IMG/VR virus record: IMGVR_UViG_3300045988_126140
Span: 1 to 64,000 of that record
Direction: 5' to 3' (one strand)
From: a virus
Length of the DNA stretch: 64,000 nt
The notes beneath the pieces were generated by a model, which was not told the DNA's origin, did no database searches, and saw nothing but the letters and a program-made list of their open reading frames with translations. How positions within the stretch are numbered: position 1 is the stretch's first letter; each line of letters starts with the position of its first letter. Of this stretch, positions 671-58,252 are shown in pieces. A program made the position numbers and the translations under genes.

Positions 671-685
671 AAAATAATTAATAAA
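671..685 (+). repeat. 15-mer AAAATAATTAATAAA (exact)
   Basis: Read directly. Followed by promoter P1. Confidence 0.95.
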
Positions 686-689
686 ACTA

Positions 690-718
690 TTGACAATAAT
701 TTAGTTGTGGCATATACT
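690..718 (+). promoter_or_regulatory. sigma-A-type promoter P1 (TTGACA-17-TATACT)
   Basis: TTGACA at 690-695 and TATACT at 713-718, directly after the 15-mer at 671-685. Confidence 0.6.
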
Positions 719-751
719 TGTTAGTATAAGATATATAGGGAGGTTGGTAAT

Positions 752-1252
752 ATGAATAAAAGTAAAAACGAAATATTCACTGAAAGGCTAGAAGGTTTTA
801 TATTAAAAGAGATAGAAGAAAAAGTAGAAAAGCTTAAAAATTTAAATATTTTAGAAGCGACAATAAAATTAACATCTAAAGAGCTGTATGAATATATCGA
901 TAATAATATAGGAGATTCAGAGAACTTTGTGTTATTAGCTAAAATAAATGGAAATTATCAAATCGAAATCTTATATTATTACAAAAATAAGTTTATAAGA
1001 GCAATTACTCAAGAAGGTAATGAAGGTATAATTGACATTTATACTCTTTTAAGAATCTGTCTTTTACAAAATACTAATACACCTTCAGTTGAATTTACAA
1101 TTCATAAATGTGAACTTCATGGAAAAGAGACATTAGACCCATCTGAACTTTCTGAATTGAACAGCTTATTAAGTTGCGAACACGAATCTTGCGAATCATG
1201 TGATTATTATGATATTGAAGAAGTTAATTTGTTAGATGATAAAAATAATTAA
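752..1252 (+). CDS. hypothetical early protein (166 aa), acidic C-terminus with a CxxC cluster
   Basis: ATG follows a GGGAGG SD downstream of promoter 690-718. C-terminus contains CEHESCESC. The ORF ends ..KNN inside a near-copy of the 15-mer (1242-1256). No family recognised. Confidence 0.75.
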   Translation: MNKSKNEIFTERLEGFILKEIEEKVEKLKNLNILEATIKLTSKELYEYIDNNIGDSENFVLLAKINGNYQIEILYYYKNKFIRAITQEGNEGIIDIYTLLRICLLQNTNTPSVEFTIHKCELHGKETLDPSELSELNSLLSCEHESCESCDYYDIEEVNLLDDKNN

Positions 1253-1284
1253 TAAGGGTTATTTTTAATTAGTTTATGTTAATA
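1253..1284 (+). promoter_or_regulatory. degenerate copy of the CATAGGTAATTT-N12-TGTTAATA promoter family
   Basis: TAAGGGTTATTT (8/12), then 12 nt, then an exact TGTTAATA at 1277-1284. Confidence 0.35.
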
Positions 1285-1317
1285 TATAAGTATAAATTAA
1301 TAAAGGAGGAATATAAT

Positions 1318-1674
1318 ATGAATAAATATTTAATTGAAATGGCAGACGGAGGTATAATAGATATATGCGACGATATAGAATGCGATGATTACGGTTGTCC
1401 TACTTGTGGATTTAATGGACACTATACAAATCATATGAAAATAACATTAGAAAAGAATATTTTAGAAATAGAATTTGGAGGAATGTATACATTTGATATA
1501 CCAGATTACTTGGATATAATGAAGATATTTACTCAAAATAATGACAATATCAAAAATATGACAGAAGAAGAGTTTATAGACTTTCTTAAAGAAGAGTTAG
1601 ATAATTTAACTTGTTATGAAGTAGAAATGAGTAGAAAAGAAAAAATATATAAAAAAGATAAAGAAATATGGTAA
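1318..1674 (+). CDS. hypothetical protein (118 aa) with a CDDIECDDYGCPTC cluster
   Basis: Track ORF is 1276-1674. The preferred ATG at 1318 sits 7 nt after AAAGGAGGA. No family recognised. Confidence 0.7.
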   Translation: MNKYLIEMADGGIIDICDDIECDDYGCPTCGFNGHYTNHMKITLEKNILEIEFGGMYTFDIPDYLDIMKIFTQNNDNIKNMTEEEFIDFLKEELDNLTCYEVEMSRKEKIYKKDKEIW

Positions 1675-1703
1675 TGTATAAGTATAAATAAAGAGGTATA
1701 AAT

Positions 1704-1928
1704 ATGAATAAAGCTATTGATTATTTAAAGAGAGAGCTTGAGGTCGAATTAATAGAAGATGGATTTTTCTATTCGATATTTGAAAGTGATAAATATAGAG
1801 TGAAACTTATATTTAGAGATAGAACATTTAGAAAAGATAGTTATCAAATATACATAAATGATTATTTTATTAAATTTACTAAATGGAAGGATTTATATGG
1901 AATTGTTGATAGTTTTAAAAATAATTAA
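1704..1928 (+). CDS. hypothetical protein (74 aa)
   Basis: ATG follows an AGAGGT SD. The ORF ends ..FKNN inside the 15-mer at 1918-1932. Confidence 0.7.
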   Translation: MNKAIDYLKRELEVELIEDGFFYSIFESDKYRVKLIFRDRTFRKDSYQIYINDYFIKFTKWKDLYGIVDSFKNN

Positions 1929-1932
1929 TAAA
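1918..1932 (+). repeat. 15-mer (exact)
   Basis: Overlaps the ..KNN stop of 1704-1928. Followed by P2. Confidence 0.95.
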
Positions 1933-3625: not shown

Positions 3626-4411
3626 ATGGGGAGTAAAATAGATAGAACAGGCGAAGAGAATATCAATAATTTTGGAAGTAAAATGGTTATAATAGAGTAT
3701 AGAGGGGCATTAGATATAGATGTTTACTTTCCAGAGTATGACTGGGTTGCTAAAAATAAACAATATGGTGATTTCAAAAAAGGTGAAATATCATGTTCTT
3801 ATGAAAGAAGATATTATGGGATAGGATATATTGGTGAAGGGAAGTATAAAATAAGTGATGAAAATGGAAAAGAAACTAAGTATTATAAAGTTTGGCATGA
3901 CATGTTAAGAAGATGTTACAACTCGAAGTATCATGAAAAATATTCAACATATAAAGATTGTGAAGTAGTTGAAGAATGGTATAATTTACAAAACTTTGGA
4001 AATTGGTTTACAGATAATTATTATGAAATAAAAGGACAAAGAATGCATTTGGATAAAGATATATTAGGTAAACATAATAAATTATATTCACCTAATAATT
4101 GTATGTTTGTCCCTCAAAGAATTAATACATTATTTGTTAAATGTGATAAGGTTAGAGGAGAATATCCTGTAGGAGTATATTATAATAAACAAAATAAAAA
4201 ATTTAGAGCACAATGTAGTGTTTATAATTTTGAAGAAAATAAACAGAAACAAATATATTTAGGGTTATATGACACGTCAGAAAAAGCGTTTCAAATTTAT
4301 AAAAAGTTTAAAGAAAAGAATATTAAAGATATGGCTGATTATTATAAAGACCAAATACCAGAAAAACTTTATCAAGCCATGTATAATTACAAAGTAGAAA
4401 TAACAGATTAA
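3626..4411 (+). CDS. HNH/AP2-type homing-endonuclease-like protein (copy 2)
   Basis: Paralog family signature: DRTGE.NINNFGS, CxYERRYYGIGYIGEGKY, W..MLRRCY, LDKDIL..HNKLYSPNNCMFVP.RIN (degenerate His-Me/HNH core), and a C-terminal YLGLYDTSEKAF..YK AP2-like segment. The 15-mer follows the stop codon. Confidence 0.8.
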   Translation: MGSKIDRTGEENINNFGSKMVIIEYRGALDIDVYFPEYDWVAKNKQYGDFKKGEISCSYERRYYGIGYIGEGKYKISDENGKETKYYKVWHDMLRRCYNSKYHEKYSTYKDCEVVEEWYNLQNFGNWFTDNYYEIKGQRMHLDKDILGKHNKLYSPNNCMFVPQRINTLFVKCDKVRGEYPVGVYYNKQNKKFRAQCSVYNFEENKQKQIYLGLYDTSEKAFQIYKKFKEKNIKDMADYYKDQIPEKLYQAMYNYKVEITD

Positions 4412-4413: not shown

Positions 4414-4428
4414 AAAATAATTAATAAA
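4414..4428 (+). repeat. 15-mer (exact)
   Basis: After the stop of HNH copy 2. Followed by an SD. Confidence 0.95.
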
Positions 4429-4442: not shown

Positions 4443-4988
4443 ATGAATATAGATAATATAAAATCTATAGATTTTGTTTTCGAAAATTGTGAAACCATGA
4501 GAATACCGATTGAAAGCTTTAAAAGCTTAGAAATAGAAAAAGCAAATGATGATTCTTATTCTCTTTCATGTATTATAGAAGGAGTAGATAAAATACAGGA
4601 CTCTTTATATAAAGAATATTTTAATCCATTTCAACGTATTGTTGATTATGATGATATAACTTCTATAGAAATAAGATATAAAAATGGAGACGTAAACAAT
4701 TTATACATGATTTGGGAAGGTGATTATTCTAATTTTTATCAAGAATCGTGTTTATTAAAATTTAATAAAATAAAAATAGATATAAATAAAGAAGTTAAAC
4801 AAGCTAAAATAAAAAGAAATATAGGGAAAAAAGCTGTGGAAATATTGGATTATATTTATCAAGATGTAGATGTAAATTTTTGTAATGATTGCGTTTATCA
4901 CGAGGATTGTAAAAAAATGAAACAGAATAAAGATATTGATATATGTGATGTATTATATTTTTTATCAAATTCATATGAAAATAATTAA
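4443..4988 (+). CDS. hypothetical protein (181 aa), C-terminal FCNDCVYHEDC motif
   Basis: Good SD (GGAGGG). Ends ..YENN inside the 15-mer at 4978-4992. Confidence 0.75.
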   Translation: MNIDNIKSIDFVFENCETMRIPIESFKSLEIEKANDDSYSLSCIIEGVDKIQDSLYKEYFNPFQRIVDYDDITSIEIRYKNGDVNNLYMIWEGDYSNFYQESCLLKFNKIKIDINKEVKQAKIKRNIGKKAVEILDYIYQDVDVNFCNDCVYHEDCKKMKQNKDIDICDVLYFLSNSYENN

Positions 4989-4992
4989 TAAA
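4978..4992 (+). repeat. 15-mer (exact)
   Basis: Overlaps an ..ENN stop. Followed by P3. Confidence 0.95.
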
Positions 4993-4997: not shown

Positions 4998-5025
4998 TTG
5001 ACAAATAATATAGGTATGATATAAT
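4998..5025 (+). promoter_or_regulatory. sigma-A-type promoter P3
   Basis: TTGACA at 4998-5003 and TGATATAAT at 5017-5025. Confidence 0.7.
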
Positions 5026-5100: not shown

Positions 5101-5177
5101 CTATAATAAGAAGGTGATTAAAATGTAAACTTAAAAGAAATACCTCGACAAAAGTAATTAATAAAGGAGAGATAAAT

Positions 5178-6020
5178 ATGAGTAATATAATTGATATAAA
5201 TAGAAATAAAAAGATAAAAAGTATACCGAGCACAGAGGTTGCTAAAATGATGAAAAAGGAACATTGGGAAGTATTAAGAATGTTAGAAGGATATGAACCA
5301 CCTAAAGGTAGTAAAAGTAGAAAAGTTATTGGAATAATACCAACACTTACCGACCACAACATTGTGGTGAGTGATTATTTTATTGAAAGCACATATAAAG
5401 ATGCAAGTGGTAAGTTAAATAAATGTTATGAATGTACTAAAATGGGTTGTGAATTATTAGCTAATAAACTTACTGGAGAAAAGGGAATATTATTTAGTGC
5501 TACATATGTAAAAAAATTCAATGAAATGGAATCAACACAAATGCAAACAATAGACACAACAGAATTATCACCTAGCCTTCAGTCATTCAAAATGTTATTT
5601 GATAGTATGGTTGAACAAGAATTAAAACAGAAACAAATGGAAAAAGATATAAAAGGACTTCAAAATTCATTAGATAATATACAAGACTTAATATCATTGT
5701 CGAAAGATAATTGGAGAGCAGATGTGAAAAATATGGTTAATAAGATAACATATAAAACTGGTATAAATCATAAGGTTGTATATGATGAAGTATATAAAGA
5801 AATAGATAACAGATTTGGAGTAAATTTAAATACTAGATTGAAAAATAGAAAAAATAATGCTATTAAAAATGGTGTAAGTAAAACAAAAGCAGATAAAATA
5901 AATAAATTAGACATAATAAACGAAGACAAGTTATTAATTGAGGCAATATTAATTGTAATAAAAGATTTAGCAATTAAATACGGTTTATATGAAGAAAATG
6001 ATTTAACAATAAATATGTAA
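5178..6020 (+). CDS. Rha-family phage regulatory protein (antirepressor-like)
   Basis: N-terminal IPSTEVAKMMKKEHWEVLRMLEG .. YFIESTYKDASGKLNKCYECTKMGCELLANKLTGEKG resembles the Phage_pRha domain. Preceded by tandem promoters at 4998-5025 and 5069-5100. Confidence 0.6.
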   Translation: MSNIIDINRNKKIKSIPSTEVAKMMKKEHWEVLRMLEGYEPPKGSKSRKVIGIIPTLTDHNIVVSDYFIESTYKDASGKLNKCYECTKMGCELLANKLTGEKGILFSATYVKKFNEMESTQMQTIDTTELSPSLQSFKMLFDSMVEQELKQKQMEKDIKGLQNSLDNIQDLISLSKDNWRADVKNMVNKITYKTGINHKVVYDEVYKEIDNRFGVNLNTRLKNRKNNAIKNGVSKTKADKINKLDIINEDKLLIEAILIVIKDLAIKYGLYEENDLTINM

Positions 6021-6023: not shown

Positions 6024-6038
6024 AAAATAATTAATAAA
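6024..6038 (+). repeat. 15-mer (exact)
   Basis: After the rha stop. Followed by an SD. Confidence 0.95.
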
Positions 6039-6057: not shown

Positions 6058-7194
6058 ATGGAAAGAATAATAAACTTTACTGGGGAACTTGATGCTGAAT
6101 TAGGAAATTATGTAGTTAATGAATTATTAGATATATATGATAAAAATAAAGCTATAATTGAAACAAATGAAAGATTAAAATATCAAAGTGATTATCTACC
6201 ATTATACGCTGATGTAGTAGAATTTAGAATAAATAGTAACGGGGGAGATTTATATAAATTTTTAGAAATATATGATTTAATGGAAAGGATGAAGCAAGAA
6301 CAAGGAATAATATTTAAGGCAAGAACAAGTAGTCACGCTTATTCAGCAGGAATGTATTTGTTTTGTGCTTGCGATTATAGAACAATGAGTAAATTTGGTA
6401 GTTTAATGTATCATGAAATGTCTATGATGAGGATGGATAAATTAAGCGACTTAGAAAGTGAAACAAAAAGAATGAATAAAATACAAAAAATATTAGATGA
6501 TATAGTTACTCGAGATACTGGTCTAACTCAAGAAATTTTGGATAAATATAAAGGACGTGATTTTTGGATAGATTTTGATAAAGCTTTAGAATATGAAATA
6601 ATAAAGGAAGAACCTAGCGAAGAGGAGCGATTAGCAAAAGCATTAGAAGATATGGATAAAGAAGAAATGACAGAATCAGAATGGAACGCTTTTATCGAAG
6701 AGATGAAGGAATTGATTAATATTATTCCAGATAAGCCTACAGAAAAAGAAATACAAGATAAAATAAAAGAAATAGAAGGGGATACAGAACCAGATATGAC
6801 ATTAGGGGAAGCTGTTAAAGAGGTATTAGGCGAAGACTTTAGATGTAATGAAGAAGTTGAATGTGATGAGTTTGAAAATAGATGTTGTTATATGTGTGAG
6901 AACTTTGATAAATGTGATAAATTATGTAAATATGCAGAAAAAGCAGATATATGTGAACATATGGAGAATAAATTAGATGAATTAGATAGTGAATGTGAAA
7001 ATTGCACTTGTAAAGAAAATAAACAAGAAGATATAAAAGAATGTGAGGAACCAACTGAGTGTGGGTTACATCGTGGAACTAATATTTGTTGCCATTTCTG
7101 TCCAGACTTTAATGAATGTACAGACTTTCATAAATGTGCATTCACTGATGACGTCTTTGATTGTGAATATTTAAAAGAACCTTTGGATGACTAA
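6058..7194 (+). CDS. ClpP/S14-like serine peptidase with a C-terminal tandem cysteine-rich extension
   Basis: FRINSNGGD, SHAYSAGMYLF (Ser) and LMYHEMS (His) match ClpP-fold landmarks. The last ~115 aa hold two CC-x2-C-x2-F-x2-C repeats. Confidence 0.65.
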   Translation: MERIINFTGELDAELGNYVVNELLDIYDKNKAIIETNERLKYQSDYLPLYADVVEFRINSNGGDLYKFLEIYDLMERMKQEQGIIFKARTSSHAYSAGMYLFCACDYRTMSKFGSLMYHEMSMMRMDKLSDLESETKRMNKIQKILDDIVTRDTGLTQEILDKYKGRDFWIDFDKALEYEIIKEEPSEEERLAKALEDMDKEEMTESEWNAFIEEMKELINIIPDKPTEKEIQDKIKEIEGDTEPDMTLGEAVKEVLGEDFRCNEEVECDEFENRCCYMCENFDKCDKLCKYAEKADICEHMENKLDELDSECENCTCKENKQEDIKECEEPTECGLHRGTNICCHFCPDFNECTDFHKCAFTDDVFDCEYLKEPLDD

Positions 7195-7208
7195 AAATAA
7201 TTAATAAA
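7194..7208 (+). repeat. 15-mer (exact)
   Basis: Begins at the last base of the ClpP-like gene's stop codon. Followed by hairpin H1. Confidence 0.95.
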
Positions 7209-7223: not shown

Positions 7224-7240
7224 AGGGAGGAATCCTCCCT
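7224..7240 (+). promoter_or_regulatory. intercistronic GGGAG stem-loop H1
   Basis: AGGGAGGAaTCCTCCCT, followed by AGAAAGGAG SD. No U-tract. Confidence 0.5.
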
Positions 7241-7464: not shown

Positions 7465-9366
7465 ATGGATAGACACTGCAAAATTTGTGGGAAGAAACTA
7501 ACGGATGGGGACAATATAAAAAGGGAATTATGTAATAAGCATTATTTACAGATAAAAAAATATGGATTTCCATGGGACGATAATAGAAGAACAGAAATAG
7601 ATTTAAATGAATATGAAGAATATCCTAAACATTATGAAATGAAGTTATATGATGAATTTCAAGAGGAACTAGAAGATAAAGTTTTAATTGATAAAGATGA
7701 TTATGAATTAATAAAAGATATTAGATGGAATAAAAGGAGAACTTCTGTTGTGGCAAAAATTAATGGTAAAACTATACCTTTACAAAATTACATATTAAAT
7801 ACAGACGAAAAAATAAACTTTGTGTCACAAGATATACTAGACTGTAGAAGAAATAATTTATATATTAAAAAGAAAAAAGATAAAAAGCATAAACATTATG
7901 ATATATCTAAAAAGAATAAAGATAAAATTATAATAGATTTTGCAGGGAGTAGTAAAACACAAGTAACAGGGAGTGCAATAATTGTATCTTATCCAGTAGG
8001 TGATAATAAATATGAAAGATTGTTAGTTGAATTTGGACAAAGTCAAGGTAATGGAGGTTTATATGACGAATATAAAGCTAATAAGGGGGTGGTTGATGAT
8101 GTGTTAAGTAGAATAGACAATCTACAAGCTTGTTTTATTCTACATACACATCTTTAACTAGACCATATTGGAAATCTCCCGTCTTTAATAAATAATCATA
8201 TATCAGTACCTTTAATAACTACTAGAGAAAATAGATTACTATTAGAACCGTTATTACTTGATGGGGCATACATAATAGAAAGAAATGTTAAAGCATTGCA
8301 AAAGCAGAAATATAAAGTAGAACCTTTATATAGTGAAAGCGATGTATATCTACTAATGAATAATGTAATAGATAAAGAAATGCATAAAGTATATAAATTA
8401 AATGACAGAGTAAGTTATGAGTTTGTCAATTCTGGGCATATTTTAGGTGGCTGTCAATTGATTCTTTACATAAAAACTCTATCTGGAAACACTAAAAAAA
8501 TTCATATAACATCAGATTTAGGTAGTAATTATAATAAAGCACCATTTGTATTAAAAAGGGATAATATACAATCCTCTAGTGTAAGTATAGTTGAAGGAAC
8601 GTACAATGACTTAGACAGAGGTTTTAAATCTAAAAAACAAGTGGAAAAGGAAAGAATTAAATTAAAAGAAATAATTAAAAAAGAATTAAGTAAAAACAAA
8701 AGAATATTATTTGGGGCATTTGCACAGTCAAGAACTCAAAACTTAATGATATATTTGTATGAATATTTTAAAGACGACCCTAATTTCGATACGAAGATAT
8801 ATGTAGATGGGAAACTATGTCATTCTATTACTAATGCTTATTTAGAAATATTACAAGGTGAAGAAAAAGAATATTTTAGAGAAGTGTTAAATTGGAAAAA
8901 TTTTATTTATGTAAAGGATTATCAAAATAGCTTGAGTGTAGCAACTAATAATGAAAAGAAAATTGTTATCTCTGGTGGTGGTATGTATACACAAGGGCGA
9001 ATATTAAACCATTTAAAAACAATGGTGGAGGATAAAGATTCTACTATTATAATGGTTGGGTATTGTGGAATAGGTACTATAGGTAGAGAACTTCAAAGAA
9101 AAGACAATAAAACTATAAAAATAGAAGGATTAGAATATAAGAAAAAATGCAAAATATATGAAATGAATACTTGGTCATCTCATATAATGGCTAACGAGAA
9201 TATAGATTTTATGTGTAACATAAATACACCGTTAATATTAATACATCATAGTGATAAAGACGGTAAATATAAATTTAGAGATGTTATAGAAGATGAATTA
9301 AGAACTAAAGGTAATAGTGCTAAAATAATAGCAGTCGATGAGAATAATTCAGTGTTTTTTATTTAA
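7465..9366 (+). CDS. beta-CASP metallo-beta-lactamase-fold nuclease with an N-terminal HNH-like zinc module, interrupted by an in-frame TAA at 8155-8157
   Basis: Track ORFs 7465-8157 and 8296-9366 share one frame, and the frame stays open from 8158. Motifs are ..ILHTHL*LDHIGNLP (HxHxDH split by the stop), NSGHILGG, ITSDLG, VEGTYN (beta-CASP A), WSSHI (B), LILIHHSD (C). The N-terminus has CKICG..CNKHYLQIKKYG plus ..DILDCRRNNL. Confidence 0.7.
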
Positions 9367-9377: not shown

Positions 9378-10013
9378 ATGAATAATTTAATTGTAATTGA
9401 AAATAATGAGCAATTAATTAGCTTACGTAAACTATATGACGCATTAGAAATAAAAAGTAAATTCAATGATTGGAAAAATAGAATGTTTTCTTATGGATAC
9501 GAAGAAAATATAGATTATATAGCTGTTACTCAAAAAAAAGTAACAGCTCAAGGTAATAGTTCTGAATACATAGACTATTATTTAAAAATAGATGTAGCAA
9601 AAGAAGTATGTATGATTCAAAGAAATGATAAGGGGAGAGAATTTAGAAGGTATTTTATTGAAGTTGAAAAGGCATATAACGATTTACAATTTAGAATAGG
9701 AGATAAAAAACATCAACTTAAATGTATGGAGATGTTGCAAGATTTTTTACCAGAAGAATTAAAGCAGGAAAAAATATCGTATATAAAAGCAAATACTGTA
9801 GTTAATAAATGTACCAGCAATTATTTCGGCTTCCCTAAGATGTTAAAGAAGGTTGAGATGAATGATGAAATGTTAAAAGTAAGAGAAGAAATACTAGATG
9901 ATTATCTAAAATTATTCGAGGTATTACAAGATAATGGTGAGGTCAAAGAAGCTTTATATAAAAAATATGATAAACGAAAATTATTATTAGAATCAAAAAA
10001 TGAAAATAATTAA
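9378..10013 (+). CDS. AntA/AntB-type antirepressor
   Basis: LISLRKLYDALEIKSKFNDWKNRMFSYGYEENIDY .. DVAKEVCMIQRNDKGREFRRYFIEVEK matches the AntA domain pattern. Ends ..NENN in the 15-mer. Confidence 0.75.
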   Translation: MNNLIVIENNEQLISLRKLYDALEIKSKFNDWKNRMFSYGYEENIDYIAVTQKKVTAQGNSSEYIDYYLKIDVAKEVCMIQRNDKGREFRRYFIEVEKAYNDLQFRIGDKKHQLKCMEMLQDFLPEELKQEKISYIKANTVVNKCTSNYFGFPKMLKKVEMNDEMLKVREEILDDYLKLFEVLQDNGEVKEALYKKYDKRKLLLESKNENN

Positions 10014-10017
10014 TAAA
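10003..10017 (+). repeat. 15-mer (exact)
   Basis: Overlaps an ..ENN stop. Followed by P4. Confidence 0.95.
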
Positions 10018-10022: not shown

Positions 10023-10050
10023 TTGACATTATATTCCAATATGATATAAT
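10023..10050 (+). promoter_or_regulatory. sigma-A-type promoter P4
   Basis: TTGACA at 10023-10028 and TGATATAAT at 10042-10050. Confidence 0.7.
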
Positions 10051-10269: not shown

Positions 10270-10284
10270 AAAATAATTAATAAA
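10270..10284 (+). repeat. 15-mer (exact)
   Basis: Followed by an SD. Confidence 0.95.
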
Positions 10285-10721: not shown

Positions 10722-10736
10722 AAAATAATTAATAAA
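10722..10736 (+). repeat. 15-mer (exact)
   Basis: At the end of the C2 leader. Followed by an SD. Confidence 0.95.
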
Positions 10737-10750
10737 GGAGAGATGTGTAT

Positions 10751-11878
10751 ATGAGTAATTTAAACTTCGTTATGGTAGGTAGATTATCAATTGCACCAGA
10801 TAGAGAAAATAGAAAAGCTTTTAGCGATAAATTATTAAATAGTGGTTGTAATATTAGACAATTTTATTTGAATATGAAATGTGATAAAGATAACTTTAAT
10901 CTTCAAATAAAATCTTTCATGAATAATGTTAAAAGAACTTCAGATGGAACACTTAATGTTAATGATTCAACTATATATACCATATTAGATAATGACGGTA
11001 AATATGAATCAACTAACTTTAAATATAAAGATAAAGATAAATATGAAGATAGAATCGCAAACTTCCGTAAACTGGTATTTGTAGACGAAAACGAAGAAAG
11101 AGTAGAGTGCAGTAATGAATTTGATTATTCAATGGCAGTGCACTCAATATTAAAATCAGATGCTTATAAAGACAAAAAATTTAAAGTACAAGGTAATATA
11201 GAATATTCAAGTTATACTAATCCTAAAACACACGAAGAAAAGATTTATACAAATTACAATGTGCAAAGAATATATGTTATAAATGACGAGGCAGAAGAAA
11301 AAGCATTAGCAAACGTAGAATTTTATATAACAGAAGATTGTTTAGACGATAGCAGATTAGAAGAAGAGAATCTATTAGTTATAAATGGATATATACCAGA
11401 GTATAATTCTAAGAAAAAGGCTGATATAGGATTTTATCAATCATTTGAATACCCATTAGGTGAGGATAGTGAGAAAGCTAAGAAAATGGCTAAATTAATA
11501 GATAAAATGTTATTAGATAACTTTGACGATAATGAATTATGTAAAATGGGGTATAGAGTTAATTTAATAAATAGAAGAGAAGAAGTACCATTTAATGAAG
11601 ATATGTTAAGTGATGAAGAAAAAGAACTTGTTAAATACGGATTAATGGACATTGAAGATTTGAAACAGCAATATGGTGTAGGAATGGGTAGTATGCAAAG
11701 AAGAATGGAAATATCTTCAATAGGTAGAGGATATAGTAAAGGAGCAATACCAGTACCTTTAACATTAAACGAGTTATTAAGTAAAGGTGATGAACCTAAG
11801 AAAGAATTAGTGGACGAGGACGGAGACTTAGATATACTTGGTGAAGAAGATAACGACGATGATTTATTCGATTTTTAG
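10751..11878 (+). CDS. putative single-stranded DNA-binding protein (atypical, 375 aa) with an acidic C-terminal tip
   Basis: N-terminal NFVMVGRLSI resembles an SSB OB-fold start. The C-terminus ..EEDNDDDLFDF mimics the SSB DDDIPF tip. Lies beside recombination genes. ATG 10751 is preferred over the track start 10745. Confidence 0.5.
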   Translation: MSNLNFVMVGRLSIAPDRENRKAFSDKLLNSGCNIRQFYLNMKCDKDNFNLQIKSFMNNVKRTSDGTLNVNDSTIYTILDNDGKYESTNFKYKDKDKYEDRIANFRKLVFVDENEERVECSNEFDYSMAVHSILKSDAYKDKKFKVQGNIEYSSYTNPKTHEEKIYTNYNVQRIYVINDEAEEKALANVEFYITEDCLDDSRLEEENLLVINGYIPEYNSKKKADIGFYQSFEYPLGEDSEKAKKMAKLIDKMLLDNFDDNELCKMGYRVNLINRREEVPFNEDMLSDEEKELVKYGLMDIEDLKQQYGVGMGSMQRRMEISSIGRGYSKGAIPVPLTLNELLSKGDEPKKELVDEDGDLDILGEEDNDDDLFDF

Positions 11879-11882: not shown

Positions 11883-11897
11883 AAAATAATTAATAAA
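11883..11897 (+). repeat. 15-mer (exact)
   Basis: Followed by hairpin H2. Confidence 0.95.
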
Positions 11898-11904: not shown

Positions 11905-11924
11905 AGAGGGAATTAATTCCCTCT
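11905..11924 (+). promoter_or_regulatory. intercistronic GGGA stem-loop H2
   Basis: AGAGGGAATTAATTCCCTCT (perfect palindrome), followed by AGGAAGGAG SD. Confidence 0.5.
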
Positions 11925-12279: not shown

Positions 12280-12294
12280 AAAATAATTAATAAA
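12280..12294 (+). repeat. 15-mer (exact)
   Basis: At the end of the C3 leader. Followed by an SD. Confidence 0.95.
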
Positions 12295-12306: not shown

Positions 12307-13557
12307 ATGTATCAGAATGAGGAACATAAGAGAGGAGTAATTGAAAGGGGAGATGGTTACGAATATATAGGAAGTTATTACTGGAATGAAGTGACTATAG
12401 ATGGTAAGAATAAAAAACAAACTAAAAGTTATATAAGAGTAAAATGTCCCTATTGCAGTAAAGAATATGATATAGATGTTTATTCTTTTGTTAAAGGAAA
12501 TAAATCAAAATGTAATTATTGTTGTAATTTTTATGAAAAATCTTTTGCCTATCATATTCAACAAGAATTACAAGAATCACTTAATAAATATTGGGATTGG
12601 GAGAAAAATACAGTTAATCCTTATTTGATAAATAAAAATTATAAAAAAAAGGTAGTTATTAAATGTGATAAGAAAGATTATCATAATGATTTTGGAGGTT
12701 ATGAGGTTAAGCCAATAGATTTTATAAAAGGTGTCAGATGCCCTTATTGTCATAACTTTAAAGTACATCCTAAAGATTCATTCGCACAATGGGGGATAGA
12801 TACTTTTGGCGAAGATTTCTTAAAAAGATATTGGTCGCCTAAGAACACAATCAATCCATGGGAAATAAAGCCAGGTAGTGATAAGAAAGTATGGTTATTA
12901 TGTCAAGAAAAAGATTATCATAATGATAACGGTGGATATTTAATATGTTGTGAACATTTTCATAGTGGCGTAAGATGTACTTATTGTGGAAAAAATGGCA
13001 AATTGCATAAATTAGATAGCTTTGCTTATTTATATCCCGAAAAAGCCAAATATTGGGATTATAAAAAGAATAATAAATCTCCTTATGAGGTCTCTCCTAG
13101 AAGTCATAAAAAATATAAATTTATATGTGAAAAATGTGGTGAAGAATTTGAAAGAGGCTTAACAGTTTTAAATAAAAGCGATTTAGGTGTTGTTTGTAAT
13201 AATTGTAATTCATCTGTATTAGAAAAAAATACTGCAAAGATACTTAATAAATATAATATTAAATATTATAAAGAATATATATTTAATGATTTAATAGGTG
13301 TTGGTAATAATAATTTAAGATTTGATTTTTATCTACCAGATTATAAGTTACTTATTGAATGTCAAGGAATACAACATAAGATATGGCAGAGAACGTGGAT
13401 GAGTAAAAAGGAATTTAAAATAATATTAGAGCATGATAAACGTAAGGAGGAGTATTGTAAAAGAAATAATATTGAACTAATAAAGATTTGGTATTATGAT
13501 ATCGACAATATTGAAGAAATATTGACACATAGATTGAATTTAAATAAAAATAATTAA
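12307..13557 (+). CDS. triple zinc-ribbon protein with a C-terminal Vsr/PD-(D/E)xK-like endonuclease domain (homing-endonuclease-like)
   Basis: Three repeats of W(D/S)..KN..P....P.S.KK.W..C....YHND.GGY......G.RC.YC (DUF4379-like treble clefs). C-terminal LRFDFYLPDYKLLIECQGIQH. ATG 12307 is preferred. Confidence 0.7.
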   Translation: MYQNEEHKRGVIERGDGYEYIGSYYWNEVTIDGKNKKQTKSYIRVKCPYCSKEYDIDVYSFVKGNKSKCNYCCNFYEKSFAYHIQQELQESLNKYWDWEKNTVNPYLINKNYKKKVVIKCDKKDYHNDFGGYEVKPIDFIKGVRCPYCHNFKVHPKDSFAQWGIDTFGEDFLKRYWSPKNTINPWEIKPGSDKKVWLLCQEKDYHNDNGGYLICCEHFHSGVRCTYCGKNGKLHKLDSFAYLYPEKAKYWDYKKNNKSPYEVSPRSHKKYKFICEKCGEEFERGLTVLNKSDLGVVCNNCNSSVLEKNTAKILNKYNIKYYKEYIFNDLIGVGNNNLRFDFYLPDYKLLIECQGIQHKIWQRTWMSKKEFKIILEHDKRKEEYCKRNNIELIKIWYYDIDNIEEILTHRLNLNKNN

Positions 13558-13561
13558 TAAA
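13547..13561 (+). repeat. 15-mer (exact)
   Basis: Overlaps a ..KNN stop. Followed by an SD. Confidence 0.95.
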
Positions 13562-14650: not shown

Positions 14651-14662
14651 TCAATAAAACGT

Positions 14663-14686
14663 ATAGGGAGTTTTTAAACTCCCTAT
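14663..14686 (+). promoter_or_regulatory. intercistronic GGGAG stem-loop H3
   Basis: ATAGGGAGTTTttAAACTCCCTAT, followed by ..AATAAGGAGG SD. Confidence 0.5.
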
Positions 14687-14708
14687 ATATGAATAAGGAG
14701 GAAGTGTA

Positions 14709-16269: not shown

Positions 16270-16301
16270 AAATAATTAATAACAAAATAGGAGTTGATAT
16301 T

Positions 16302-18502: not shown

Positions 18503-18506
18503 TAAA
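18492..18506 (+). repeat. 15-mer (exact)
   Basis: Overlaps the ..KNN stop of the GH13 gene. Followed by P5. Confidence 0.95.
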
Positions 18507-19351: not shown

Positions 19352-19364
19352 TAATAATTAATAA

Positions 19365-44174: not shown

Positions 44175-44189
44175 AAAATAATTAATAAA
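44175..44189 (+). repeat. 15-mer (exact)
   Basis: After the dut stop. Followed by C11. Confidence 0.95.
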
Positions 44190-46448: not shown

Positions 46449-46715
46449 TTATTTTTCGTCTTTATTAATTAAATTTCTATAAGCTTCATACAATCCTGTA
46501 CTTGCTAATCCTGTAATTAAACCACTTAAAATTACATTAAAATCATAACTTTGAGCATTAACTATTGCAACAAGCATACCTACAATTCCCATAATTAAAG
46601 GTATATATTTATTTGGTATTTTAGGTATTGAAGTTTTAATTATATACCCAATTGCTAAACAAAATAACATCACACCACCATTTATTAAACTCATGTATAA
46701 ATCTAAATCAATCAT
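46449..46715 (-). CDS. holin (88 aa, multi-TM)
   Basis: Three hydrophobic segments, GLASTGLYEAYRN, and a charged C-terminal tail. Immediately upstream of the endolysin. Confidence 0.7.
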   Translation of the reverse strand: MIDLDLYMSLINGGVMLFCLAIGYIIKTSIPKIPNKYIPLIMGIVGMLVAIVNAQSYDFNVILSGLITGLASTGLYEAYRNLINKDEK

Positions 46716-47017
46716 TATTTTTCACCTTCTCTTTCATGTTGTTTTATATCTCTAATATCCAATTTTAAATCATCCATATCATGTTTTAAATCGTCAATTT
46801 TAACATTTGTATCTCTTACTTCATTACTTATTCCTTTTATGGTCAATGAGAATTCATTTACAGTTTTATGAAATTCTTCTACTGAAGTTTTATATAAGTC
46901 TCTATTTTGATTAGCCTCGTTTAAAACTTGTTGTATTAAAATCCATACTAATATTACAAAAACACCCATTGCACCATAATTACTTAACACCTCCAATAAA
47001 TCCATTATTAGCACCAC
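46715..47017 (-). CDS. lysis-cassette membrane/coiled-coil protein (XhlA-like position)
   Basis: N-terminal TM segment (AMGVFVILVWILI) followed by a coiled coil. ATGA-coupled to the holin. Confidence 0.5.
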   Translation of the reverse strand: MVLIMDLLEVLSNYGAMGVFVILVWILIQQVLNEANQNRDLYKTSVEEFHKTVNEFSLTIKGISNEVRDTNVKIDDLKHDMDDLKLDIRDIKQHEREGEK

Positions 47018-47037
47018 CTTTCTTTATTAATTATTTA

Positions 47038-47733
47038 TTATAAGGCTATAGTTATTTCAATATATGGTCGAGTACTACCCGTACCACTAAAATATCCATA
47101 ATCTGTAACTGCGAATCCAGTTGGTGCTAATAGTCTAAAACCATCAATAGTACCATTTTGGATAGATTGTATTGCTGTGCTATTTAGTGTTAATGTTAAA
47201 GTTCCTCCTTTATTAAAATGAGTACTGCTACAATATTGAGTAGAATTAACATTACTCATTGAAAAACTTGTCGGTCTGTAAGTGCTCATATTAGTTGCTC
47301 CACTTATTATAGTGTTTAATCCTGCATAATAATACGAATGTAAATTAGTTAATTTTAATTTTACGCTTGTTATTGTTCCTAGCTGTCTAGCTTGTTCAAA
47401 TAAACTTTTAAAACATATTATTCCTAAATAATTAAAATTAGGATAATAACCTTGATATATTCTATCTCTTCTATCGTCATTGAAATTATCAGTAAATGTT
47501 CCAGTTGTACTAGAGCCACGATAACTTCCACTCCAATCAGCATAACCTTTTACAATATATGGTGAAGATGGAGTTGAACCTCCACCTCCAGAAGAGCCAT
47601 TGCCTAAATCTATTCTTTCCATACCATTAGAAGTTTTTTTATAAACAGGACAAATTTCCATACCATTAGAAGTTTTTCTATAGATAAGTATGTTATTTAA
47701 TGAACCATTTTTATTGATGTATATACCACTCAT
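47038..47733 (-). CDS. tail fibre-associated structural protein (231 aa)
   Basis: In-frame duplicated KTSNGME segment. A Gly/Ser linker GSSGGGGSTPSSPYIV is shared with the neighbouring 759-aa fibre. Confidence 0.5.
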   Translation of the reverse strand: MSGIYINKNGSLNNILIYRKTSNGMEICPVYKKTSNGMERIDLGNGSSGGGGSTPSSPYIVKGYADWSGSYRGSSTTGTFTDNFNDDRRDRIYQGYYPNFNYLGIICFKSLFEQARQLGTITSVKLKLTNLHSYYYAGLNTIISGATNMSTYRPTSFSMSNVNSTQYCSSTHFNKGGTLTLTLNSTAIQSIQNGTIDGFRLLAPTGFAVTDYGYFSGTGSTRPYIEITIAL

Positions 47734-55569: not shown

Positions 55570-55592
55570 AATTTTATACCTCCTTTTAATTA

Positions 55593-55838
55593 TTAAATAT
55601 CTATTTCTAAATTATATTTAATCCAATTTATAAAATTTGATACATCCTCAATACCATATCCTTGTTCTAATGAATTTTCAGATAAAAATTCTTCCCTAAT
55701 TAATCTACTTAGAAATAATCTAAATTCATCCTCTGATAAATTTAATAAATATTTTTTAATATCTTCTTTTAAATGATTTATTCCACTATCTGTTGCTCCA
55801 GTATCATAAGCAAATTTTTCTAATATTTTATCTTTCAT
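55593..55838 (-). CDS. hypothetical protein (81 aa)
   Basis: AAGGAGAT SD. In-operon position. Confidence 0.65.
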   Translation of the reverse strand: MKDKILEKFAYDTGATDSGINHLKEDIKKYLLNLSEDEFRLFLSRLIREEFLSENSLEQGYGIEDVSNFINWIKYNLEIDI

Positions 55839-55853
55839 AATATAATCTCCTTT

Positions 55854-57380
55854 CTAAACATTTGTATTATTTTCAAGAGCATCTAATCTTGATTCTATGT
55901 TAGATAATCTCGAATTTATATTTCCTATTTTAGAATTTAAATCATTAACTTGATTTTGAACTTCTAAGATTTTATCATTTAATCTTTTTTCAATTTGTTG
56001 TAAATTAACTTCACTTGTTGCTGAATTAATTAAATTTATACAGTTTAACATTTGTGAATTTAATTTATTTCTAGCTTCCCTATATAATGCTAATCTTATA
56101 TTGAATTCTTTTCTCTCGTCTTTATTAAAAATTAAATCTTTCATATCTACTCGTATTGAATTAATGAAATTTGCATGTTTTGCTTTAAAATCATCAAAAT
56201 ATTCTTTTAATAATTGTTTATTATTATCGCCTAATTTTTCATTATTATAGTAAGATTGATAACTAGCTTCTATTTTAGAAACATAATTAACCATTCCATT
56301 TGCTAAAGCGTCCAACGAATTATATTGTGCTACCGTTAATTTCCCATCCACGTTTAACAATGAATTAGTTATAGGGAGCATATCATTTGAGTACTTTTGA
56401 TTTGCATCAAAATATCCTTGAATAGTTTGTTGTTCTTTAGCGAAAGAATTAATCAATGAAGCTTGTAATTCATACATATTGCTAGATAAATCATCTATTC
56501 TAGCATTTGTATTATAAACTTCATCTGATATAGTACTTGAAGCTCCTAATGTTTTTTCGCCTTCTGAACCTATAGACAATATTGTACTACATGAATCTTT
56601 AAAAGAAGATAATGTTATCAATATCGTAGTTATATTAGATGTTATGGAAGAAATATCTGCTAATGTTATATTTTCCCTATCATCCTCTGTGACGATTTTA
56701 ATTTCTACAATTAAATCAGCCAGCATTTTTTGCAGAGATAGTTGATATTCTAAAAAAGATGTTGTGTCTACGTCATTAGAATTTTCTGCCATCATATCAA
56801 TTAAAGCATCACTATATCCAAGCATTTCTTCAAATTTATTATTGATTGTATCTAATCTATAATTGACATCTGCTTTTTCTGCTGAATTAAATGTCTCATC
56901 GGAAAGTCTATCGGTTAATACAGTCTTTAAATCTATCATTAAAGAATTGGAATTTATTATTGCTGTATTTAATAATTCTTTAATTTGTTCAAATGATAAG
57001 TTTTCTTGATATTCTTTTGATAAACTTTCTATATTATCTTGAGTGATTTCAAGTTGTTTTTTATAAAATTTATTGTTTTCGTTCACATTCTGAAGTTTCT
57101 CTGCTATTGATTTCTTATTATATCCATCAAATAGCATTTCTAATAAATCTGTAGTGGTTGTAACCCCTATACCATCTATATTTTTAATTATAAATATCAA
57201 GTCTTCTTTGTCGTCTAATTTATTATTTGTGGGTATTAATTCTGATGATTTTATTTTCCAATAAATATATTTATTGTTAGTATATATATTATTTATATTA
57301 TATATTATATTGTCATACAATATTGTCATATCCTTTATGTAAATATATCCTTGATTAGGTGTATTATTAATTATTGCCAT
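55854..57380 (-). CDS. coiled-coil structural protein (baseplate/fibre-associated)
   Basis: Long heptad-rich, N/S/L-rich sequence. ATG 57380 lies 8 nt after GGAGG and is preferred over the GTG at 57389 inside the SD. Confidence 0.6.
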   Translation of the reverse strand: MAIINNTPNQGYIYIKDMTILYDNIIYNINNIYTNNKYIYWKIKSSELIPTNNKLDDKEDLIFIIKNIDGIGVTTTTDLLEMLFDGYNKKSIAEKLQNVNENNKFYKKQLEITQDNIESLSKEYQENLSFEQIKELLNTAIINSNSLMIDLKTVLTDRLSDETFNSAEKADVNYRLDTINNKFEEMLGYSDALIDMMAENSNDVDTTSFLEYQLSLQKMLADLIVEIKIVTEDDRENITLADISSITSNITTILITLSSFKDSCSTILSIGSEGEKTLGASSTISDEVYNTNARIDDLSSNMYELQASLINSFAKEQQTIQGYFDANQKYSNDMLPITNSLLNVDGKLTVAQYNSLDALANGMVNYVSKIEASYQSYYNNEKLGDNNKQLLKEYFDDFKAKHANFINSIRVDMKDLIFNKDERKEFNIRLALYREARNKLNSQMLNCINLINSATSEVNLQQIEKRLNDKILEVQNQVNDLNSKIGNINSRLSNIESRLDALENNTNV

Positions 57381-57434
57381 ACATTTCACCTCCTATAAAA
57401 ATAACACCTATAAAATATAGGTGTTTATACTAAA

Positions 57435-57449
57435 TTTATTAATTATTTT
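57435..57449 (-). repeat. 15-mer (exact, reverse complement TTTATTAATTATTTT on +)
   Basis: Immediately 3' of HNH copy 9 in gene orientation. Confidence 0.95.
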
Positions 57450-58225
57450 TAATCAGTAATTTCAACTATATAATTATACATACCATTATATAATTTTTCT
57501 GGTATCTGTTCTTTGTAATAGCCAGCTACTTCTTTGATATTCTTTTCTTTATAATACTTATAAATCTCAAATGCTTTTTCTTGAGTGTTATAAACACCTA
57601 AATGTTCCCTTTTTGATTTACCTGTTTTAGGATTAATCATATTACAACGTACTCGATATTTACCATTTTCACAAAGACTTGTTCCTATAACTGAACTACC
57701 TCTTGATTTGTCAGATTTGATAAATAATTTATTAATTGTTTGTGGTACAAATATACAAGTCTCTGGTGAATATATTTTATTGTGCTTAACAAGAATATCT
57801 TTATCAAGTTGCATCTGTTCATTACCAACATTATAATAATTATCATAATACCATTCAGCGAAATTCTGAAAACATAACCACTCATCACAAACTTCACAAT
57901 CTTTATAAGTCGGATACTTTTCGCGATGTTTTTCATTATAACATCTTTCTAACATATCTCTCCAAGTACAATAACATTTAGTCTTTTGACCGTTTTTGCT
58001 ACCCTTGCACCTACCCTCTCCGATATAACCCACCCCATAAACACTTCTTTCATAAGGACATTTAATCTTTCCTTTTTTAAAAGCACTATATTCTTTATTT
58101 TTAGCAGTCCAATTATATTCGGGAAAATAAACATCTATATTATCCCATCTTTTATAATCTACTATCACCATTTCACTTCCAAATGTATTATAATTTCTTT
58201 CTCCTATTCTATCCGTTTTATTCAT
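57449..58225 (-). CDS. HNH/AP2-type homing-endonuclease-like protein (copy 9), inserted in the late operon
   Basis: Family signature. Exact reverse-complement 15-mers flank both ends (57435-57449 and 58238-58252). Confidence 0.8.
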   Translation of the reverse strand: MNKTDRIGERNYNTFGSEMVIVDYKRWDNIDVYFPEYNWTAKNKEYSAFKKGKIKCPYERSVYGVGYIGEGRCKGSKNGQKTKCYCTWRDMLERCYNEKHREKYPTYKDCEVCDEWLCFQNFAEWYYDNYYNVGNEQMQLDKDILVKHNKIYSPETCIFVPQTINKLFIKSDKSRGSSVIGTSLCENGKYRVRCNMINPKTGKSKREHLGVYNTQEKAFEIYKYYKEKNIKEVAGYYKEQIPEKLYNGMYNYIVEITD

Positions 58226-58237
58226 AAATATCTCCCC

Positions 58238-58252
58238 TTTATTAATTATTTT
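58238..58252 (-). repeat. 15-mer (exact, reverse complement)
   Basis: Immediately 5' of the SD of HNH copy 9. Confidence 0.95.

Follow-up and report, generated by a model that had tools for sequence, protein, structure and literature searches.

The 64,000 nt stretch analysed here (the window) comprises positions 1 to 64,000 of the IMG/VR virus record IMGVR_UViG_3300045988_126140 and contains many copies of a 15-mer, AAAATAATTAATAAA, at the junctions between its genes. The replication and repair genes of the window encode a ligase, DnaB, a primase-like protein, a Sak4-like AAA_24 ATPase, a PD-(D/E)XK nuclease and a split DNA polymerase III alpha subunit (PolIII-alpha), while those of nucleotide metabolism and modification encode ThyX, NrdD, a dUTPase, a DNA methylase and a DndB-like protein. 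The regulators Rha and AntA, a ClpP-like protease and TnpB are also encoded, and the tail, tape-measure and lysis genes are on the minus strand. The 15-mer, referred to below as the motif, is a gene-junction sequence of one uncultured clade of phages with genomes of ~136 kb.

Counted on both strands at up to one mismatch, the motif has 24 exact copies in the window (22 on the plus strand and 2 on the minus strand) and 10 copies with one mismatch. The exact copies are those reported in the first-pass annotation of this DNA, which had found only seven of the one-mismatch copies. In 100 dinucleotide shuffles there were on average 1.14 matches at this threshold, with a maximum of 4, and none of the shuffles reached 34. 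Gene junctions hold 31 of the 34 copies. The three that are inside genes, at 2471 (+), 36684 (+) and 54153 (-), each have one mismatch; these are probably chance occurrences or irrelevant and were set aside. All 34 copies are oriented with local transcription, as had been claimed. The 30 plus strand copies are located before 44.2 kb, among plus strand genes, and the 4 minus strand copies beyond 47 kb, among minus strand genes; this strand switch coincides with the switch in coding strand and in GC/AT skew near 45 kb. The earlier statement that the motif marks almost every boundary is too strong, as 26 of the 41 plus strand gaps of at least 19 nt carry it and it is present at about 40% of the gene junctions of the window. 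The logo of the 34 copies is a sharply bounded 15–16-mer with R at -1, and the 25 nt on each side are without information. The motif is asymmetric and consists of A and T only (p ~0.01 for such a run over 15 positions at 26% GC). Although mirror-like, it contains no inverted repeat and does not self-pair.

The junction copies are listed below, where SD is the Shine-Dalgarno sequence, ORF an open reading frame, HEG a homing-endonuclease gene and HNH-AP2 the larger of two HEG families in the window.

671–685 (+), exact; stop of HNH-AP2 gene 300–665 is 5 nt upstream, TTGACA promoter 690–718 is 4 nt downstream
1242–1256 (+), one mismatch (A15G); contains the end of ORF 752–1252 (..KNN, two stops)
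1918–1932 (+), exact; contains the end of ORF 1704–1928, 12/12 promoter 1938–1965 is 5 nt downstream
4414–4428 (+), exact; HNH-AP2 gene 3626–4411 ends 2 nt upstream, followed by SD and a gene start at 4443
4978–4992 (+), exact; contains the end of ORF 4443–4988, 12/12 promoter 4998–5025 is 5 nt downstream
5151–5165 (+), one mismatch; in a leader, 3' of a start-stop mini-ORF, fused to the SD of Rha gene 5178–6020
6024–6038 (+), exact; Rha stop is 3 nt upstream, followed by SD and ClpP-like gene from 6058
7194–7208 (+), exact; overlaps the stop of 6058–7194, followed by GGGAGG hairpin 7224–7240
10003–10017 (+), exact; contains the end of AntA ORF 9378–10013, 12/12 promoter 10023–10050 is 5 nt downstream
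10270–10284 (+), exact; SD-fused, next gene from 10301
10722–10736 (+), exact; 3' of middle-type promoter 10630 and a start-stop mini-ORF, SD-fused to 10745–11878
11883–11897 (+), exact; stop of 10745–11878 is 4 nt upstream, followed by hairpin 11905–11924
12280–12294 (+), exact; SD-fused to zinc-finger HEG 12307–13557, other genes joined here in relatives
13547–13561 (+), exact; contains the end of the zinc-finger HEG ORF, followed by SD and Sak4-like AAA_24 gene from 13577
16269–16283 (+), one mismatch; overlaps the stop of HNH-AP2 gene 15505–16269, missing in relatives without this HEG
18492–18506 (+), exact; contains the end of alpha-amylase-family ORF 17447–18502, left repeat of an HNH-AP2 insertion
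19351–19365 (+), one mismatch; overlaps the stop of an HNH-AP2 remnant, right repeat of the insertion, followed by hairpin 19365–19393
19612–19626 (+), exact; SD-fused to DnaB gene 19639–21198, HEG remnants upstream
22221–22235 (+), exact; contains the end of primase-like ORF 21212–22231, first separator of a variable cassette array
23378–23392 (+), one mismatch; SD-fused to HNH-AP2 gene 23404–24180
24180–24194 (+), one mismatch; overlaps the HNH-AP2 stop, SD-fused to PD-(D/E)XK nuclease gene 24205–25074
25068–25082 (+), exact; nuclease ORF ends within it (second frame), middle-type promoter 25085 is 2 nt downstream, PolIII-alpha from 25140
30926–30940 (+), exact; overlaps the stop of HNH-AP2 gene 30147–30926, in the empty site of relatives the upstream ORF ends in the same motif
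31207–31221 (+), exact; overlaps the stop of 30953–31207, followed by SD and ThyX from 31238
33511–33525 (+), exact; abuts HNH-AP2 gene 32734–33510, in empty sites a methylase ORF ends in the motif, promoter 33538 downstream
36944–36958 (+), exact; SD-fused to NrdD gene 36972–39230
39713–39727 (+), exact; stop of 39220–39708 is 4 nt upstream, middle-type promoter 39729 is 1 nt downstream, TnpB from 39796
44175–44189 (+), exact; abuts dUTPase gene 43434–44174, ATAGGTAA at 44201
47023–47037 (-), one mismatch; abuts the stop of 47038–47733 (-), followed by SD for 46715–47017 (-), before the lysis genes
57435–57449 (-), exact; overlaps the stop of HNH-AP2 gene 57449–58225 (-), followed by a terminator-like hairpin
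58238–58252 (-), exact; SD-fused to HNH-AP2 gene 57449–58225 (-)

The place of the motif is thus directly after the stop codon of an early or middle cistron, or such that it supplies that stop itself. Seven ORFs, ending at 1252, 1928, 4988, 10013, 13557, 18502 and 22231, terminate inside it as (K/E)NN-stop-stop. The motif has stop codons in two of the three frames only. In the window 17 copies are fused to an SD. The spacer between the two is usually 0–3 nt, and at most the terminal AAA of the motif extends the SD pairing. Across the clade the SD starts between -2 and +6 nt from the end of the motif, with a start codon after it, in 75 of 138 distinct downstream contexts, and between -2 and 0 in 49. 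Core genes directly 3' of the motif include those for DnaB, NrdD, ThyX, the Sak4-like protein, the nuclease and ClpP, and the downstream genes are mutually unrelated. Gaps of 10–15 nt in the late operon do not contain the motif, and the late arm is nearly motif-free.

Two classes of promoter are found after other copies. Promoters of the form TTGACA-N16/17-TATAAT follow 6 of the 31 junction copies (671, 1918, 4978, 10003, 18492 and 33511), three of them matching the sigma-A consensus at 12/12 positions with an extended -10. The motif ends 4–5 nt, or in one case 12 nt, 5' of their -35, which places it at about -41 to -55, the position of an UP element. This position accounts for the six promoter-adjacent copies, and not for the other 25. 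Promoters of the ATAGGTAATTT type follow 25068, 39713 and 44175. This middle-type promoter is 40 nt long, ATAGGTAATTTT-N12-WTGTTAATA-N4-TAATAT, and is found after three or four motif copies. All nine promoter-adjacent motif copies are exact. Middle-type candidates were recognised on the plus strand at eight positions (10630, 12180, 19472, 25085, 29361, 34741, 36800 and 39729) and also at 44201; they have an element like an extended -10 and, upstream, a conserved box, features that point to an activator or sigma factor of the phage.

Hairpins follow four or five motif copies in total, among them 7194, 11883 and 19351. The stop-stop endings, both sets of promoters and these three hairpins had all been described in the first-pass annotation and were found again as described. 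The hairpins at 7224–7240, 11905–11924, 14662–14687 and 19365–19393 have no T-run on the plus strand. On the minus strand the same four are followed by the T-rich complement of the motif and score as intrinsic terminators, and they may stop antisense transcription. Start-stop mini-ORFs, in which an SD and ATG are followed by an immediate stop (GGTGATTAAA-ATG-TAA/TAG), are present at ~5125, ~10686, ~12234 and ~29417. These are conserved leader elements located 3' of promoters and 25–45 nt 5' of the motif or of a degenerate motif; they could be cassette deletion scars or regulatory start-stops.

The motif is shared by relatives whose DnaB is 76–99% identical, in which stretches of 21 kb contain 8–16 exact copies, each on the strand of the genes. 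Partial genome maps, in which 100, 83 and 77 kb of sequence are known, contain 73, 57 and 59 copies at up to one mismatch, the range of 57–73 copies per clade genome therefore being a lower bound. The early part of these genomes, rich in ORFans, has up to 17 copies per 10 kb, and orientation flips between their two transcription arms. A scan of all 2.9 million IMG/VR contigs for the 19-mer formed by the motif and GGAG returned 90 stretches. The 19-mer is multi-copy only in about 17 contigs of the clade; about two dozen other contigs have one each. The exact motif is absent from nine loci (181 kb) of other AT-rich phages, eight of which have an NrdD ~71% identical to that of the window and several of which come from the same metagenome. 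It is likewise absent from ~120 kb of Clostridial DNA of 26–29% GC, an AT-rich background rather than an established host, and from 50 kb of phage phiCD211 (26.3% GC, 132 kb). Within the AT-rich DNA covered here, the 15-mer is thus not the generic ribosome-binding-site context that had been considered possible at the outset. A general trait of large AT-rich phage-plasmids can also be rejected, as no 12-mer occurs more than five times in 50 kb of phiCD211. A full-text literature search for AATAATTAATAA returned only unrelated eukaryotic and plasmid papers.

In the sister lineage L028 (NrdD 93% identical) the 15-mer is missing and 14 copies of a core, (A/T)AATTAATAA, are found. Of these core copies, 10–11 are directly 5' of an SD, and three are just 3' of a sigma-A -10, that is, in the leader. 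Orthologous sites within the clade were located by their flanks alone, starting from the copies of the window. At these sites the motif is 98.1% identical, against 87–90% for the mostly coding flanks, and positions 5–11 are 100% invariant. This difference argues for purifying selection, site by site, on the exact sequence, or for very efficient homogenisation. Mismatches between copies are concentrated at the motif edges. Several copies in contig IMGVR_UViG_3300045988_118892, at 136.4–139.5 kb, have a longer upstream repeat (..AAATGATAGTA followed by the motif), which points to an extended sub-family of the junction element beside the Rep3 gene of that contig.

Comparison of relatives identifies the motif as the joint between different genes. 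There are 266 distinct motif contexts in the clade; of the 120 clusters of upstream flanks, 32 have two or more downstream partners, and of the 138 clusters of downstream flanks, 31 have two or more upstream partners. In pairs without HEGs, identity drops from ~0.95 to ~0.5 exactly at +15, or rises exactly at 0. Three different genes are joined at the 10722 site in relatives. In seven relatives a single motif separates the amylase-family gene from a terminator; the window has two there, flanking a promoter and a disrupted HNH-AP2 gene. Between the primase and nuclease genes relatives have one motif, the window has three separating two cassettes, and L003 and L008 have other cassettes. This array in the window is primase-M-X-M-HNH-M-nuclease, where M is the motif, and X differs between relatives. 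A motif is touched by 60 of the 115 cassette-scale differences and is present at both ends of 16, values that are close to those of random gene boundaries.

Many of these cassettes are HEGs. Two unrelated families are present in the window, with the following genes.

300–665, 3626–4411, 15505–16269, 18842–19351, 23404–24180, 30147–30926, 32734–33510 and 42134–42916 (+), and 57449–58225 (-); nine HNH-AP2 paralogs
12307–13557 (+); second HEG family, with a DUF4379 zinc finger, phrog_559 HNH endonuclease

For the nine paralogs the matches are to PHROG HNH-endonuclease families and, weakly, to AP2. Eight of them adjoin a motif at their 3' end, as had been stated, although the distance given then, 0–3 nt, does not hold for 300–665, which ends 5 nt before its copy. 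Clade-wide, the motif is within 6 nt of the 3' end of 43 of 68 distinct HNH-AP2 genes and of 16 of 19 zinc-finger HEGs. The 5' sides vary, being another motif, a promoter or an altered end of the upstream gene. The zinc-finger HEG occupies different genome positions among relatives. Two sites are U-motif-D when empty, the motif containing the end of the upstream ORF, and U'-HEG-motif-D when filled; the HEG therefore inserted at the 5' edge of the motif, leaving the motif and SD intact. At a third site, 15505, the empty allele is motif-less. Since relatives without that HEG are also without the motif, copy 16269 came with the HEG cassette. HEG remnants precede the solo motifs 19612 and 12280. 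Between 19532 and 19611, the first 19 codons of a zinc-finger HEG follow the middle promoter 19472 and are succeeded by an HNH-AP2-like 3' end (..acagattg) and motif 19612. The HNH-AP2 copy at 18569–19351 is disrupted and represents a decaying HEG. A segment of ~40 nt (gaaagYgaggtRgaataaATGttattaaaaatatatgga) from the junction of genes 29459–29812 and 29813–30115 is duplicated, at 29795–29830 and 30095–30135. Its recurrence at the 5' end of the HNH-AP2 insertion 30147–30926 is evidence that recombination at a different short repeat produced the 5' joint of this insertion. Homologs of HNH-AP2 are also found in motif-less relatives, and most copies in the window adjoin genes that are not HEGs, core replication genes included. 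The earlier suggestion that the motif is the homing target or co-conversion boundary of the HNH family thus holds for the insertion joint only.

About 17 related contigs of 114–140 kb were found in IMG/VR, defining an uncultured clade of siphovirus-like genomes of ~136 kb. No close cultured relatives are present in INPHARED or PLSDB, DnaB being at most 28% identical to its nearest matches, which are in phiCD211-like, Lactococcus 949-like and Bacillus phages and in ~130-kb Firmicute plasmids. These distant plasmids have the helicase in common with the window. Contig IMGVR_UViG_3300045988_118892 encodes a Rep3 initiator, an Xer-type tyrosine recombinase and an FtsK/SpoIIIE-like ATPase, and an ENA contig identical to the left end of the window encodes a ParM-like protein. 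The presence of these proteins in relatives suggests that the clade is phage-plasmid-like and may be kept as a plasmid prophage; no lysogen or plasmid record of the clade was found. The best matches to TnpB are only ~50% identical (Clostridium and other Bacillota), and the host was not identified by this route. Genes of possible relevance to recombination and plasmid maintenance are as follows.

13577–14650 (+); Sak4-like AAA_24 ATPase, candidate annealing protein of a putative recombination module
24205–25074 (+); PD-(D/E)XK nuclease, candidate exonuclease partner in that putative module
Contig 118892, 7709–8656, 130484–131440 and 132488–133618 (-), and L074, 3840–4745; plasmid-type genes of relatives (Xer-type, Rep3, FtsK/SpoIIIE-like and ParM-like ALP_N)

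Three other loci of the window have unusual structures. The IS605-family TnpB gene is without tnpA, has a middle-type promoter and is followed by a RAGATH-18 RNA (40970–41031, 50.9 bits); the whole segment, 39796–41031, is missing from some relatives. PolIII-alpha is split (25140–26726 and 27852–29357) by an insertion of 1159 bp at 26726–27884 that contains a LAGLIDADG ORF (26967–27758), and in several relatives 26725 is joined directly to 27885. This insertion looks intron-like, although no Rfam group I or II match was above threshold. The beta-CASP RNase gene at 7465–9366 (+), which is CPSF73/FttA/TTHA0252-like, has a stop at 8155–8157 inside the catalytic HxHxDH motif. The window reads CTT TAA CTA GAC CAT (H-T-H-L-stop-L-D-H) and three relatives have the frameshifted CTT TGAAG CTA GAC CAT (loci compared: L013, L141, L157, L133 and L074), and in more distant homologs the catalytic motif is uninterrupted. 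A hop of peptidyl-tRNA-Leu from CUU, which the stop follows, to CUA would restore the canonical HTHLDH in both versions. The interruption may be a programmed +6/+8 translational hop or, alternatively, a conserved split gene or pseudogene.

The reading preferred here, though tentatively and with less than full conviction, is that the motif is a junction and start signal fused to the SD and read by a phage-specified factor, similar to the start-associated sequences (SAS) of cluster K mycobacteriophages, and that its identity across copies also makes it a joint for cassette exchange. The motif and SD on a polycistronic mRNA would form one extended, unstructured translation-start unit. A sequence-specific factor encoded by the phage would read this unit and control the translation or processing of early and middle cistrons, the late genes being without the motif. 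The mechanism envisaged is of the kind seen in RegA- or RegB-type temporal control. An identical 15 bp at dozens of junctions would at the same time be homology for the insertion, loss and exchange of cassettes, including both HEG families, with the Sak4-like and PD-(D/E)XK proteins as probable catalysts. Copies followed by a promoter or hairpin would be junctions at which a regulatory cassette landed between motif and SD, leaving the motif in the UP-element position. A specific reader is called for because the exact sequence is invariant and clade-specific, and a generic A/U- or stop-rich spacer would show neither. The tie to the downstream translation start is suggested by the adjacency to the SD, kept in both the clade and L028, by HEGs leaving the motif and SD intact, by the A/T-only composition, which suits unstructured RNA, and by the marking of early and middle but not late cistrons.

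Several observations weigh against this reading. The most serious is that about 14 copies in the window are 5' of a promoter or hairpin, outside the leader of that promoter, and are equally conserved. The motif is dispensable for translation as such, because several genes with normal gaps do without it. An enhancer acting only in cis would tolerate A/T swaps, and none are seen. No protein or RNA reader was identified. RNA complementary to the motif, G:U pairs tolerated, occurs in the window only as the reverse strand of motif copies, which leaves an antisense or small-RNA reader without a candidate, and an Rfam scan found only the RAGATH-18 beside tnpB. The beta-CASP RNase was rejected as reader, since motif-less relatives have it too and its identity is only ~33% among clade members with the same exact motif. 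For the part of the reading that concerns exchange, the edge-exact step in homology is to be expected, because any conserved element between non-homologous genes gives it. The 31 motif boundaries have 43 BLAST end points and the approximately 44 motif-less ones have 68, of which 17 are beside promoter cassettes. A recombination hotspot had been expected; as motif-less gene boundaries break about as often, this role is not demonstrated. The motif would therefore be a joint, with no support from breakpoint counts for a causal role in recombination.

The main alternative, possible but unlikely, is that the motif is a set of stoperator-like DNA operators, at which a phage repressor or silencer would bind ~70 junction sites and the early promoters and impose a polar block on transcription in a plasmid prophage, like L5 gp71 or P1 C1. 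One function would then cover the SD-fused, promoter-adjacent and terminator-adjacent copies, and the asymmetric, co-oriented sites in short gaps or overlapping stops, at about 1 per 1.8 kb, are as in PMC3029335 and PMC9283540. A clade-specific sequence with a variant in the sister lineage is what a co-evolving repressor would be expected to produce, and the excess information content and 98% conservation suit a protein site. All six sigma-A promoters have the motif 4–12 nt 5' of the -35. The proposal gains plausibility from the plasmid-type Rep3, ParM-like and Xer-like proteins encoded by relatives, with an FtsK-like protein also in these and the Rha and AntA regulators in the window. However, no repressor was identified, and what the clade and L028 both keep is the adjacency to the SD rather than a fixed promoter geometry. 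A site at -41 to -55 is outside the promoter core, and a protein operator would not be expected to be A/T-only (p ~0.01). Hardly any copies are on the late arm, whereas L5 stoperators occur on both genome arms. There is also no immunity-type diversification among 15 or more genomes, and the lysogeny of the clade is itself a prediction.

The cassette joint could alternatively be the primary function, the motif being a Susskind-Botstein linker, an analogue of the PeSL (promoter-early stem-loop) elements of T4-type phages or an HNH target, with copies seeded by HEGs and left behind on their decay; this is considered distinctly unlikely. Junctions coincide with the motif to the nucleotide, empty sites have one motif where filled sites have motif-cassette-motif, and arrays carry a different X in different relatives. 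The zinc-finger HEG is at different positions with a motif 3' of it, an HNH cassette delivered the motif to the motif-less site 15505, and HEG remnants precede 19612 and 12280. Mismatches at the motif edges, the encoded Sak4-like protein and PD-(D/E)XK nuclease, and the PeSL precedent (PMC2839356, PMC4122927) are also in keeping with it. The recombination linker had been among the initial proposals, and what stands of it are the exact homology edges and the empty and filled sites; a per-boundary excess of breakpoints is lacking, and a motif at both ends is seen in only 16 of the 115 cassette-scale differences. Purifying selection above that of coding DNA is hard to derive from a second-order benefit, and stable core genes follow the motif. 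HNH-AP2 homologs are found in motif-less phages and 25 of the 68 clade copies are without an adjacent motif; an endonuclease cutting ~70 sites of its own genome would be self-destructive unless it only nicked. There is a slim chance of an integron-like capture platform without attC hairpins, in which HNH nicks or breaks at the motif would be repaired by Sak4-like and PD-(D/E)XK annealing through the 15-bp linker alone. If so, any motif-flanked gene would be movable, deletable and importable, and the motif would be a working Susskind-Botstein linker. An attC site proper is rejected on structure, there being no inverted repeat and no information in the flanks.

Improbable to a similar degree is a multi-purpose spacer acting only in cis, without a reader, that would combine tandem stops in two frames, an A/U-rich standby site or enhancer and an UP-like A-tract, kept uniform by concerted evolution. 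The A/T-only composition, the TAA-TAA used by seven ORFs, the fusion to the SD and the position at about -41 to -55 of consensus promoters fit this proposal. Such functions tolerate many sequences, yet the core is 100% invariant and the motif is identical where DnaB is 76% identical, and other AT-rich phages of the same samples do not use it. A related suggestion in the first-pass annotation, a multi-frame stop joined to an A/U-rich enhancer, agrees in composition and SD fusion; it leaves the invariance (98% against 87–90%) unexplained and overstates the stops, which are in two of the three frames only. A compact promoter for a phage RNA polymerase or sigma factor, in the manner of the T4 late TATAAATA box or of T7-type promoters and with the start at the 3' edge of the motif, is very improbable. 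The exactness with excess information, the co-oriented position directly 5' of genes, the restriction to the clade and the easy melting of an A/T sequence would all be in agreement with this. The 0–3 nt to the SD leave hardly any leader, though, and terminator-like hairpins come at once after 19351 and 57435. There is no conserved upstream element, and early and middle transcription are already covered by two promoter classes. No T7-like polymerase ORF was found among the large ORFs in ~100 kb of a relative, a result still compatible with a small sigma factor, and the clade loci have no phage RNA polymerase ORF of at least 450 aa. A polar replication signal of the KOPS or Ter type is argued against by the strict placement at junctions and the uneven density; motif orientation does flip near the Rep3 gene and at the convergence point, where it is inseparable from gene orientation.

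The preferred reading, a start signal that also acts as a joint, has its nearest counterpart in the SAS of cluster K mycobacteriophages, which are 13 bp long, present in 11–19 copies just 5' of start codons, and for which a part in translation initiation has been proposed (Pope et al. 2011, PMC3203893). Like the motif, they are short, asymmetric repeats of one orientation in the non-structural part of the genome, immediately 5' of the starts of unrelated genes, and in both the upstream stop is sometimes within the repeat. SAS are absent from other phages and from hosts, and the motif from the other AT-rich phages, phiCD211 and the Clostridial DNA covered here. SAS differ in containing the SD (GGGATAGGAGCCC), whereas the motif is A/T-only and 5' of the SD, and in number, at 11–19 against 57–73 or more per genome. 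ESAS-like inverted repeats are not present here, about a third of copies precede a promoter or hairpin, and the host phylum and phage family are unrelated. The motif can be seen as a Firmicute counterpart of SAS, one that is A/T-only and has more copies. To identify what reads it might bring to light a further level at which phages control translation or transcription. If the motif does act as a junction signal, it could be used as it stands to join genes in engineered phages of AT-rich anaerobes.

PeSLs consist of a sigma-70 promoter and a stem-loop in ~50–70 bp, and for these mini-circles and promoter and terminator activity have been shown experimentally (Arbiol 2010, PMC2839356; Comeau 2014, PMC4122927). 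Like the motif, they are intergenic regulatory repeats of plastic, ORFan-rich regions, placed between an upstream stop and a downstream SD and at the boundaries of insertions, deletions and replacements among close relatives, although here there is no per-boundary excess. The motif together with a sigma-A promoter gives six PeSL-like cassettes in the window. Most copies, however, are the bare 15-mer, with neither promoter nor stem-loop within. The stoperators of cluster A phages (L5 gp71, Bxb1 gp69) number 24–34 per genome, are mostly intergenic and oriented with transcription, and have a subcluster-specific consensus (PMC3029335); repressor binding and a polar block of transcription have been shown experimentally. 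They share with the motif and with the C1 operators of P1 the form of asymmetric sites of 13–17 bp in many copies, and with the motif an intergenic, co-oriented layout. The motif differs from stoperators in being A/T-only, fused to the SD and nearly missing from the late arm. Dispersed asymmetric operators bound by C1 are also a feature of the phage-plasmid P1.

Arrays of integron attC sites are similar in that co-oriented, mostly promoterless cassettes have a repeated site between them, and in that an Xer-type tyrosine recombinase gene is in the cassette-dense region of a relative, which a plasmid dimer resolvase explains more simply. An attC site is an imperfect palindrome of 57–141 bp recombined as a folded single strand, and the motif is 15 bp. 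The modular theory of Susskind and Botstein and of Clark et al. proposed short boundary 'linker' sequences that join mosaic modules; according to PMC3029335, such sequences are not findable at most mosaic boundaries. The motif resembles such a linker as a short conserved sequence at the junctions of mosaic modules, where homologous recombination could join unrelated genes, and differs in that it can actually be seen, at about 40% of the window's gene boundaries. With one exact 15-mer at ~40% of junctions and relatives that differ by the cassettes joined there, this decades-old hypothesis becomes directly testable in this clade. The closest systems are therefore SAS by anatomy, T4-type PeSLs by evolutionary behaviour and stoperators by genome-wide layout. 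Having no SD within, unlike SAS, and no promoter or stem-loop within, unlike PeSLs, the motif is assigned to none of these and is seen as a distinct form of oriented intergenic punctuation repeat, belonging to one phage clade.

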